Origin: a virus | Length of the DNA stretch: 64,000 nucleotides | UHGV virus genome: UHGV-0164982 | Direction: 5' to 3' (one strand) | Shown here: positions 33,692 to 35,381 of the stretch, one piece after another | Position numbering within the stretch: position 1 is the first letter of the stretch | How the letters are laid out: each line of letters opens with the position of its first letter | The notes under the pieces: generated by a model | Database searches by the model: none | The model's input: only the letters and a program-made list of their open reading frames with translations | Told to the model about the DNA's origin: nothing | Made by a program: the position numbers and the translations under genes

Positions 33692-34807
33692 TTATTCAGC
33701 CGCCACCGGTTTTAACAAGCCAGCATCGAGCAGTTTACGCGTCAACCACTGCTGGCCTTTACCCGTTAATTGAGGCGTCAACCGTATCTGGTAGCCATCT
33801 TCATCATCCAGCACCACTTCTTTCACCGTGAAATACCCGGCGTTGATGTATTGCTGGAGCGGTACATTTTTACGCCCGCCGGACGCAATCAGGATGCCGT
33901 TCTCCCGTAACCAGGCAAACAGCGCGTTTTGCTTAAGTCCAACAACCTTTGCAAAATTCCCAATCAGGATCCCTTTAGCTACTGATACCCGGTCGGCAAA
34001 ATCGACTTTAGGAGCGGCGGCCACCAGCTGCTGATTTAGCTGGTGGGCTTTCTGTTCCAGAAGCTGCTTTTGTTCAGCCAGTTCGGCAGCCAGGCGCAGA
34101 GCTTCTGGAAGCGTCTGGGGGATTGCGATCGGTTGCTGTTCTTTTTGTCGGAAGTAGCTGTCTTCCAGTTTTTCAAAGAATGCCCATGCCTGATCGGTTT
34201 CGAGCATTTTAGCGTGACGGGCAGCTCCTCGTTCTGTCCAGAGGATGAGAGAGCGCGCTTTGGGGGAGACTGGATTTTGTGAGTAGTTTAAAGCTACCCG
34301 CAAATTTTTCAGCTCATCGCCAATAACCTTGAAAAAGTGCTTCGCTTCAACAAAGCGTACTTTGTTCTCATGATGATTCTGGCGAATGCGAATCGCTTCT
34401 GTACCATACCCCTTAGCAAGAGTTTCGGTTGTTACGACACGCACTCCCTGCCACTCCAGAACGGGAATTTCATCCGGCTGATTCTGAACAACCACCAGTT
34501 CCGATTCCTGAACTGAAGGTGCATAAATTTTTTCTGATTTAACGTTAGTTGCTTTCATTCTGTGTGCCTCCTTGCGTGCTTCGGCTGCGACGGTTGCGTA
34601 ATTCAGATGACCCTGTTCGAGCAGGTATTCACGGATATCGGTTAGCAGAATGCGGTGAACCGCGTGTTTGTCCTTTCTCCGGTAAAGTTGTTTGGTGATC
34701 ATGAAGTAGTTGGCAATAACGCCAGGTATATCCCTGGTACTGATACAGGCAGTGTGCTGTTCAATTGCCTCGATCATCTCTTCACGGGTGACTAATGACG
34801 TTCTCAT
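33692..34807 (-). CDS. antirepressor-like protein (ORF6N/Bro-N-like N-domain plus KilA-C-like C-domain)
   Basis: 371 aa; central region resembles ORF6N/Bro-N and the C-terminus resembles a KilA-C phage antirepressor domain; call is by recalled domain patterns. Confidence 0.5.
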   Translation of the reverse strand: MRTSLVTREEMIEAIEQHTACISTRDIPGVIANYFMITKQLYRRKDKHAVHRILLTDIREYLLEQGHLNYATVAAEARKEAHRMKATNVKSEKIYAPSVQESELVVVQNQPDEIPVLEWQGVRVVTTETLAKGYGTEAIRIRQNHHENKVRFVEAKHFFKVIGDELKNLRVALNYSQNPVSPKARSLILWTERGAARHAKMLETDQAWAFFEKLEDSYFRQKEQQPIAIPQTLPEALRLAAELAEQKQLLEQKAHQLNQQLVAAAPKVDFADRVSVAKGILIGNFAKVVGLKQNALFAWLRENGILIASGGRKNVPLQQYINAGYFTVKEVVLDDEDGYQIRLTPQLTGKGQQWLTRKLLDAGLLKPVAAE

Positions 34808-35025
34808 AGTCCCTCCTGAGCAGAAGCGTTAACAGGGAGGCACCAGTAACTGAGAGAATTGCGTGAATCAGTGGAAAAACGGGCAGAGAAAATACATGGG
34901 GCGTCAGGAAGCTGAGAACGGGCCTCATCTTCTGTCGGTGCAATAACGAAATGATAGTGACGTTTTTGGCAGGAGTAAAAGCGCCAGATAAATTCAGGAT
35001 GAATTAGGGTAGGGACAGTAGCCAT
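34804..35025 (-). CDS. small ORF translationally coupled to antirepressor-like gene
   Basis: 73 aa; stop overlaps downstream start (ATGA); could be leader peptide or spurious. Confidence 0.3.
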   Translation of the reverse strand: MATVPTLIHPEFIWRFYSCQKRHYHFVIAPTEDEARSQLPDAPCIFSARFSTDSRNSLSYWCLPVNASAQEGL

Positions 35026-35364
35026 AATGGCAGCCTCCTTTGACTAAGTTAAGGAGCTACCGCGTGAGGTCTCAATCTCAATGGCGGTAGCACTGACTGG
35101 GTTGAGACTACCGGCGTCAAAGGGAACCGGCCTGCCTTTCGGCAGCCCAGCCAGCACTACCATTGATTTCGGAGCTAAACGCTACGTATGGCTGTGCGAT
35201 GGCATGACACAAAAAAAGACGCTTTCGGCGTCTGTGTCGCCTTTGACATTATCCGGGGTCTCAATCCCGGCACCCGTTTTACTGAGGTGCCTGATAAGCA
35301 TAAACCGAAAATGCCTCAAGGCGCAAGAGGTCAGGTTCAATGTAACATCGGTAGTTAAAAAACA

Positions 35365-35381
35365 CAATTTATTAGAGCAAA
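35365..35381. promoter_or_regulatory. C1 operator-like site just past pacB stop
   Basis: 15 of 17 match to operator consensus complement (TTTATTAGAGCAA core). Confidence 0.55.

Follow-up and report, generated by a model that had tools for sequence, protein, structure and literature searches.

The window analysed here is the whole stretch of 64,000 nucleotides from the UHGV virus genome UHGV-0164982, and the region of interest is that of a P1-like phage-plasmid. In this region the genes c1 and pacB are separated by a block of 1,725 bp which carries on its minus strand, in the order of transcription, a C1 operator, two inferred promoters, an IsrK-like leader RNA, a C4 antisense RNA, a homologue of icd, and an antirepressor-type gene, ant (Table 1). 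Probably, this block constitutes a second, self-contained immunity operon of the immI type that would work as in P1 and P7. The anatomy of the block, the complementarity between its RNAs and target sites, their covariation among relatives and the conservation of the operator can all be read from the sequence, and the steps of the mechanism are inferred from what is known of P1/P7 and of the IsrK locus of Gifsy-1. A first-pass annotation of the window had noticed the ant gene, wedged between c1 and pacB and convergent to c1, as well as a coupled open reading frame (ORF) of 73 codons in front of it, and the positions of the genes bear out this arrangement. The two RNAs, the identity of Icd, the paralogy to immI of P1, the commonness of the block and its prior mention had been overlooked.

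In P1 (AF234172), the stop codons of c1 and pacB are separated by 24 bp, and the junction alignments reveal that P1 homology ends on both sides at these two stop codons; therefore, the block replaces the P1 spacer. The suspicion that P1 lacks such a gene at this position was thus confirmed by alignment, and the gene is absent from P7 as well. No direct repeats or target duplication were evident in the junction alignments, and transposition was rejected as the route of insertion as neither a repeat nor a transposase was found. Positions 33560-35480 of the window are 100% identical to the Escherichia coli plasmid pXJW9B263-2 (NZ_CP067401.1; IncY, 96 kb, from bovine faeces), which will be referred to as the source plasmid. 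The C1 repressor encoded in the window is identical to C1 from P1 at 280 of 283 residues (99%).

The operator-like site that the first-pass annotation had placed next to the pacB stop codon, about 560 bp from ant, is a credible C1 operator located 558-574 nt upstream of the ant start codon, and its sequence, TTTGCTCTAATAAATTG, is identical in all six P1-type cassettes compared. When sites with at most three mismatches were counted in the window, 15 C1 operator-like sites were observed and 0.38 were expected from shuffled sequences. A strict sigma-70 consensus scan of positions 33600-35450 detected no promoter near the operator, and both promoters are therefore marked as inferred, having been placed by alignment to P2c4 and P1c4 of P1. 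The transcription start implied by the constitutive promoter (near 35290) coincides with position 1 of the isrK model match. At the edge of the window (63881-63908), two overlapping matches to the C1 operator in opposite orientations, with zero and two mismatches, form a bivalent operator which, judged by its position, is probably the ban operator of P1.

The leader RNAs were identified by an Rfam search of the window at gathering thresholds of 50 bits for isrK and 45 bits for C4, and target sites were located by a search for stretches of the leader that are complementary to C4. When this search was applied to P1 as a control, the annotated a1, a2 and b2 sites were recovered, as were seven of the eight annotated bases of b1. 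In the leader of the cassette, nine 7-mers are complementary to C4, compared to a mean of 1.2 in shuffled sequences, and in none of 2000 shuffles were nine attained. Folded alone, C4 is predicted to leave a' unpaired and to expose b' mostly in a hairpin loop, with three of the eight b' bases paired. The read-through leader is predicted to be strongly structured (z = -5.55), and in its minimum-energy fold a1 pairs with a' and b1 with b' in cis, leaving a2 free. This cis-paired form resembles the inactive structure, and the trans-activation by short IsrK, described for the isrK-orf45-anrP locus of Gifsy-1 (PMC4825925). In the window the Rfam search detected this single C4 and no second one; a canonical immI within the window was rejected as a candidate, and the canonical copy is found elsewhere on this plasmid, beyond the window.

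Some annotations and one further pairing concern this same leader region. A 39-codon 'ash family protein' (WP_001376634.1), called by PGAP/RefSeq at 35044-35163 on the minus strand, overlies the C4 RNA (35080-35167) and probably reflects a conserved RNA gene that was called as an ORF; orf84 of phage D6 and the hypothetical ORF gp120 of JL22 overlap the RNA leader as well. Also, the sequence GCGGUAGC (35056-35063, minus strand) is complementary to the 3' strand of the closing stem of C4 (region 35056-35091); it is conserved in D6 and reads GCGGUGG in the third allele described below. Before processing, the transcript could thereby fold into a hairpin with a2 exposed in the loop.

Table 1. Features of the c1-pacB cassette, the mosaic parts that compose it, and neighbouring genes (positions refer to the window).
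Feature	Position	Strand	Basis and remarks
Whole inserted cassette	33660..35384	-	Junction alignments and P1 annotation; 100% identical to NZ_CP067401.1
C1 operator, counterpart of P1 Oc4/Op51	35365..35381	-	Two mismatches to P1 consensus; aligns with P1 Oc4; beside pacB stop
Inferred C1-controlled promoter: TTGTGT (35367-35362), 17-nt spacer, TACATT (35344-35339)	35339..35367	-	Aligned to annotated P1 P2c4; -35 overlaps operator, like P1 P2c4/P51a
Inferred constitutive promoter, counterpart of P1 P1c4/P51b: TTGCGC (35326-35321), 18-nt spacer, TATGCT (35302-35297)	35297..35326	-	Aligned to P1 TTGACC/TATAGT; conserved in D6
IsrK-like leader RNA	35212..35290	-	RF01394, 59.5 bits; carries a1, b1 and Rho-independent terminator
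a1, UUGAGAC, in hairpin loop	35258-35264	-	Complementary to C4 a'
b1, GUCAAAGG	35240-35247	-	Complementary to C4 b'
Rho-independent terminator of IsrK-like RNA	35217-35233 (stem), then U run	-	Terminator scan
C4 antisense RNA	35080..35167	-	RF01695, 75.4 bits, full-model match
C4 b', CCUUUGAC, hairpin loop	35116-35123	-	
C4 a', GUCUCAA, single-stranded	35102-35108	-	
a2, UUGAGAC, target site in icd-ant mRNA	35069-35075	-	Perfect complement of a'
b2, GUCAAAGG, target overlapping icd Shine-Dalgarno AAGGAGG	35037-35044	-	Perfect complement of b'
icd homologue (73 aa)	34804..35025	-	73% identical to P1 Icd, E 8e-41; PHROG 1426, E 2e-44; RefSeq 'host cell division inhibitor Icd-like protein'
ant (371 aa, Ant1-like)	33692..34807	-	ORF; N-terminal 83 aa P1 Ant1-like, central ORF6N, C-terminal KilAC; RefSeq WP_072649455.1 full length
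GC-rich hairpin between ant and c1 stop codons, possible bidirectional terminator	33663..33684	.	Terminator scan; within inserted block
Mosaic part: P1 Op51/P51a-like control region	35384-35335		
Mosaic part: D6-like leader and icd start	35334-34877		85% over this stretch
Mosaic part: P1-like icd and Ant1 N terminus	34998-34555		70% nucleotide identity
Mosaic part: ORF6N core	34554-34124		Akin to ant genes of Stx and other lambdoid prophages
Mosaic part: P1-like Ant C terminus	34123-33702		
cre	30623-31654	-	
coi	32488-32697	+	
c1	32808-33659	+	
pacB	35385-36869	-	Together with pacA and lpa in this region

The 73-codon ORF that precedes ant is a homologue of icd, which encodes an inhibitor of cell division. 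Both ORFs are convergent with c1 and overlap by 4 nt (ATGA), from which a translational coupling of icd to ant would be expected. In the ant product, a domain search detected ORF6N (PF10543) at residues 116-201 (E = 3.6e-19) and ANT/KilAC (PF03374) at residues 259-360 (E = 5.8e-32), and the full-length protein matches PHROG 63, 'anti-repressor Ant' (E = 1.3e-130). The Bro-N/ORF6N-like and KilA-C-like regions reported earlier are therefore correct as to ORF6N and KilA-C, but the domain match is to ORF6N and not to Bro-N. When compared to P1 Ant1, the protein shows 56% identity overall, with an N-terminal part of about 83 residues that is about 60% identical, an unrelated centre, and a stretch of the last 140 residues or so that is near-identical. 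At the nucleotide level, P1 homology in ant breaks off exactly at the position of the ant2 start codon and picks up again at 34123. An in-frame start codon for M84 (ATG 34556-34558), preceded by AAGGAGG 8 nt upstream, is aligned exactly with the ATG of P1 ant2, and the gene is predicted to encode Ant1 plus a shorter in-frame Ant2. The central ORF6N segment displays 79-90% nucleotide identity over 100-250 nt to ant/ORF6N genes of Stx and other lambdoid prophages. In the alignment of cassettes, the ORF6N core (residues ~125-200; window 34200-34430) is hypervariable and the N- and C-terminal thirds are almost identical, which suggests recombination or diversifying selection on this domain. Decay of ant was considered, as the PLSDB gene table shows only a KilAC fragment of 110 amino acids, but was rejected, since the ORF in the window is uninterrupted and RefSeq annotates 371 amino acids.

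The C4 loops and their targets were read in 15 modules, yielding nine allele types (Table 2). In all but one of these modules, upstream and downstream targets track the changes in the loops when at most one G-U pair is allowed; the exception is the canonical module of vB_EcoM-673R5 (673R5), where the upstream b site was not found at its usual position. Between cassettes that are near-identical otherwise, b', b1 and b2 show matching changes of 2 nt, such that b' CCUUUGAC occurs with b1/b2 GUCAAAGG and b' CCUUUUGC with b1/b2 GCAAAAGG. That C4 loops and all four target sites change jointly among relatives is evidence for a functional antisense switch. The c1-pacB site is home to no fewer than three specificity alleles of C4. 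In the third one (673R5, at 2695-2782 of the stretch examined, and TUM1887), the spacer before C4 is 21 nt shorter, the targets pair via one G-U wobble, and the leader scores under the isrK gathering threshold.

Table 2. Recognition loops of C4 in canonical immI regions, c1-pacB cassettes and D6 modules.
Module	Genomes	a'	b'
Canonical immI	P1	CUGUCAA	CACUAAC
Canonical immI	P7, RCS47	CUGCUAA	CACAAUC
Canonical immI	JL22	CUGUCAA	CACAAUC
Canonical immI	Source plasmid (13078-13283 of stretch examined)	CUGCUAA	CGUAAGU
P1-type module (orf19)	D6	CUGUCAA	CGUAAGU
Canonical immI	673R5	CUGCUAA	CAUUCGU
c1-pacB cassette	Source plasmid, RCS47, PEC145	GUCUCAA	CCUUUGAC
c1-pacB cassette	JL22, NCCP 15734	GUCUCAA	CCUUUUGC
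IsrK-type module (orf83, not at c1-pacB)	D6	GUCUCAA	CCUUUUGC
c1-pacB cassette	673R5, TUM1887	AGGCCAA	CCUUGGAC

The a and b alleles reassort, because the canonical immI of the source plasmid combines the P7 allele of a' with a b' (CGUAAGU) that differs from both the P1 and the P7 allele and occurs in the P1-type module of D6, and because JL22 combines a' of P1 with b' of P7. Outside the window, the source plasmid keeps the canonical C4 (with an RF03163 a1b1 leader), icd, ant, kilA and repL, and a canonical immI is likewise accompanied by the cassette in RCS47, JL22 and 673R5. Phage D6 possesses two C4-icd-antirepressor modules, at 75 kb and at 20.8 kb, and a second c4-icd region has been noted in a D6-like Salmonella plasmid (PMC6799933). 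In all five genomes in which both modules were read (source plasmid, RCS47, JL22, 673R5 and D6), the two differ at a and at b, and in the source plasmid the C4 loops of the cassette match their own targets only, not those of the canonical immI. Crude duplex energies, calculated for every C4 with every leader, were best for the cognate pairs; we relied on the analysis of exact sites instead, as the energy method admits long spurious duplexes.

Two observations concern these second copies. One of the D6 modules combines a P1-type C4 with a Roi-like protein and the other an IsrK-type leader with a Rha-type protein, neither having the KilAC arrangement of P1 Ant. In the source plasmid, a type I toxin-antitoxin locus hok/sok (RF01794, 114.9 bits; hokD annotated) adjoins the lytic replicon repL (9297-9621 of the stretch examined) and occupies the place where P1 has rlfA/rlfB.

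In P1, C4 is excised from its precursor by RNase P, and Rho-dependent termination occurs within icd when translation is blocked. The mechanism of C4, Icd and Ant in P1 and P7 is reported in primary papers (Citron & Schuster 1990; Biere et al. 1992; Riedel et al. 1993). Our account of this mechanism draws on the annotation notes of AF234172 and AF503408, on a review (PMC12197685) and on these primary papers. If the cassette worked in the same way, its weak constitutive promoter would provide, in the prophage state, the IsrK-like RNA and some read-through transcript. C4, cut from the latter, would pair with a2 and b2 and block translation of icd and, hence, the coupled translation as well as the transcription of ant, and C1 bound to its operator would shut the second, overlapping promoter. 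In the absence of C1, or after its inactivation, extra transcription together with the leader bearing a1 and b1 would outrun or titrate C4, Icd and Ant1/Ant2 would be made, and Ant might then bind C1, as in P1, and push the element toward lytic growth. The C4 antisense RNA is likely to be the main regulator of the cassette, and the action of C1 would be restricted to one of the two inferred promoters. In a resident prophage, a second operon of this kind could silence the antirepressor of incoming relatives of the second immunity type, and in an infecting phage it could provide an extra antirepressor that is immune to a resident C4 of the wrong type. Neither of the two C4 RNAs matches the targets of the other, and the second operon therefore most plausibly widens the range of incoming antirepressors that are silenced.

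Several points weigh against the reading as a second immI-type operon. Expression, processing of C4 and binding of Ant to C1 are deduced from homology, and the broadening of immunity is a deduction, too. Both promoters are weak matches to the consensus and were placed by alignment. Control by C1 is not intrinsic to this RNA module, as D6, the closest relative of the leader, has no C1 operator in the aligned region upstream of its IsrK-type module. Finally, the central third of Ant is not P1-like but related to lambdoid proteins and hypervariable among cassettes, so that its target could differ. Because this central domain is foreign and variable, the target of Ant may be C1 or another repressor.

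Among the alternatives, the one that survives best, though we consider it unlikely, is that selection acts on the C4 RNA, and perhaps on Icd, rather than on Ant; the cassette would then mainly be a defence against antirepressors of incoming P1- or D6-like phages of a second immunity type, and its own Ant would be dispensable. In its favour, the C4 loops and their targets have diversified and reassort in the manner of a code with two parts, a typical outcome of arms races over immunity specificity. Also, the modules differ in their a and b alleles wherever both were read, and heteroimmunity between P1 and P7 rests on C4 (PMC12197685). Also, the cassette of 673R5 is annotated with a shortened Ant of 257 amino acids that lacks KilAC. 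However, the 673R5 record has a fragmented c1 as well, which suggests sequencing errors rather than a real shortening, and Ant is conserved at full length in most cassettes examined, with the Ant2 start and its Shine-Dalgarno sequence preserved.

We regard as rather improbable that the cassette is regulated as described but that Ant hits a heterologous repressor, such as the one made by a lambdoid or Stx prophage residing in the cell, and thereby cross-induces other prophages. Such a target would explain why the ORF6N segment has no counterpart in P1 Ant, is closest to ant genes of Stx and lambdoid prophages (79-90%), and is the most variable part of the cassettes, as expected of a specificity determinant; for Gifsy antirepressors, an action in trans on several repressors has been reported (Lemire et al. 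2011). Against this stand the P1 Ant-like N-terminal 83 and C-terminal 140 or so residues, the latter near-identical, and the wiring of the operon to C1 via a conserved operator. The suggestion of a heterologous repressor, raised in the first-pass annotation, is neither supported nor refuted.

That annotation had also proposed an antirepressor directly repressed by C1 as an additional feedback layer of the immunity circuit. The antirepressor-type gene under a credible C1 operator stands, but the gene turned out to be the last one of a full immI-type operon, and no new feedback layer is created, as immI of P1 is already under a C1 operator, Oc4/Op51. That ant is a single accessory gene controlled essentially by C1 only is therefore very unlikely: the operator is real and adjacent, and P1 lacks the gene at this site, but about 340 nt of conserved structured RNA (IsrK-like and C4) and icd separate the operator from ant, a terminator follows the first RNA, and P1 immI has this same C1-operator-controlled design. 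Still less credible is an inert recombination remnant of P1-like, D6-like and lambdoid phages without present function, as neither ORF is disrupted, the RNA loops and their targets have changed in a three-way compensatory manner, the operator is invariant among the six cassettes of P1 type and the cassette itself is widespread, although its origin is mosaic and P1-like plasmids without it are about as many as those with it (314 versus 289).

By its similarities, the cassette is indeed a mosaic in which parts related to P1, D6 and lambdoid prophages follow one another (Table 1). In PLSDB, 289 plasmids contain at least 80% of the region and 314 have an uninterrupted P1-type junction; approximately 40% of the P1-like plasmids in PLSDB with a c1/pacB match carry the cassette. 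The cassette-specific part was found in 307 of 5,426 complete E. coli genomes, and this frequency of intact copies speaks for maintenance of the cassette rather than decay. In relatives, the cassette occurs at the same site with 87-100% identity. One P1-like element with cre, coi, c1, the cassette, pacB, pacA and lpa resides in an E. coli chromosome (NZ_CP097001.1, 429-438 kb) rather than on a plasmid. An 'ant' at the c1-pacB site is annotated in the RCS47 record, and a passage in Venturini et al. (2019; PMC6906374) mentions the cassette ant for pTZ20_1P and RCS47; this was the only paper retrieved by a full-text literature search on the c1-pacB insertion. No paper in the full-text searchable literature, which does not comprise the D6 and RCS47 genome papers, recognises the RNAs, icd, the operator or the orthogonality to canonical immI.

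P1-like phage-plasmids are widespread carriers of resistance genes (e.g., SHV-2, CTX-M, mcr-1), and immunity decides on their entry, coexistence and induction. The cassette offers a concrete handle on superinfection immunity and heteroimmunity among these plasmids, and its recognition corrects routine annotation, in which the C4 RNA is named an 'ash family protein' and the identity of the module as immI is missed. As a tentative proposal, the combination of two orthogonal C4 types, canonical and c1-pacB, may act as a combinatorial immunity barcode that decides superinfection, induction and coexistence among P1- and D6-like phage-plasmids. If so, the barcode would shape the spread of resistance-bearing P1-like elements, and the hypervariable ORF6N of the Ant from the second operon would reflect a diversifying protein target.

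The cassette is an ordinary, common and partly noted variant of the known immI or C4-icd-ant kind; it represents no new type of control and no new mechanism, as characterised counterparts of all its parts exist in P1, P7 or Gifsy-1. With a C4 structure, sites a1, b1, a2 and b2, icd upstream of ant, and predicted Ant1 and Ant2, it belongs to the P1/P7 type of immI, and the central ORF6N-class domain and C-terminal ANT/KilAC of its protein are those of the antirepressor family. In P1, immI is annotated at 48.1-49.7 kb in the order Oc4/Op51-P2c4-P1c4-a1-b1-c4-a2-b2-icd-ant1/ant2, and the cassette reproduces its parts and order with near-identical spacing, the two promoters being putative counterparts. 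In both, about 200 nt separate the operator from C4 and about 50 nt the end of C4 from icd, C4 is flanked by a1/b1 on its upstream side and by a2/b2 on its downstream side, b2 covers the Shine-Dalgarno sequence of icd, and a 73-residue icd product is followed, via an ATGA overlap, by an ant gene with an internal Ant2 start. The leaders of P1 and of the cassette align through the operator, both promoter positions and the terminal hairpin with its U run. In contrast to canonical immI, which is located between sim and kilA, the cassette resides between c1 and pacB as an additional copy, its C4 has other recognition loops, its leader matches isrK (RF01394) and not c4-a1b1 (RF03163), and the centre of its Ant is replaced by ORF6N. 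The same cassette, with regard to site, operator, leader, icd and ant, occurs in RCS47, JL22, 673R5, pTZ20_1P and about 290 PLSDB plasmids, with variation in the C4 alleles and in the centre of Ant.

The module formed by orf83 and orf82 of phage D6 (IsrK-like RNA, C4, icd and a Rha-type antirepressor) shares 91% nucleotide identity with the cassette in its IsrK-like/C4 leader and has the same a' allele, but differs in b' (CCUUUUGC in D6), in the lack of a C1 operator upstream, in its antirepressor, a Phage_pRha protein without KilAC, and in genomic location. The leader of the cassette belongs to the IsrK class by its match to RF01394, its own Rho-independent terminator and its place upstream of a C4-like RNA and an antirepressor. 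In the isrK-orf45(STnc1160)-anrP locus of Gifsy-1 from Salmonella, an IsrK RNA with its own terminator allows partial read-through into a downstream processed RNA, a short ORF overlaps the antirepressor start by AUGA, which leads to translational coupling, and IsrK and the downstream region form a cis-inhibitory fold (PMC4825925). Compared by published description, the cassette has the same layout of an IsrK-like RNA with terminator, a putatively processed RNA, an AUGA overlap and a predicted cis-inhibitory fold. However, the Gifsy-1 locus is part of a lambdoid chromosomal prophage without a C1 operator and with another antirepressor, and its short ORF of 45 codons is poorly conserved as a protein, whereas the cassette encodes a conserved Icd of 73 amino acids.

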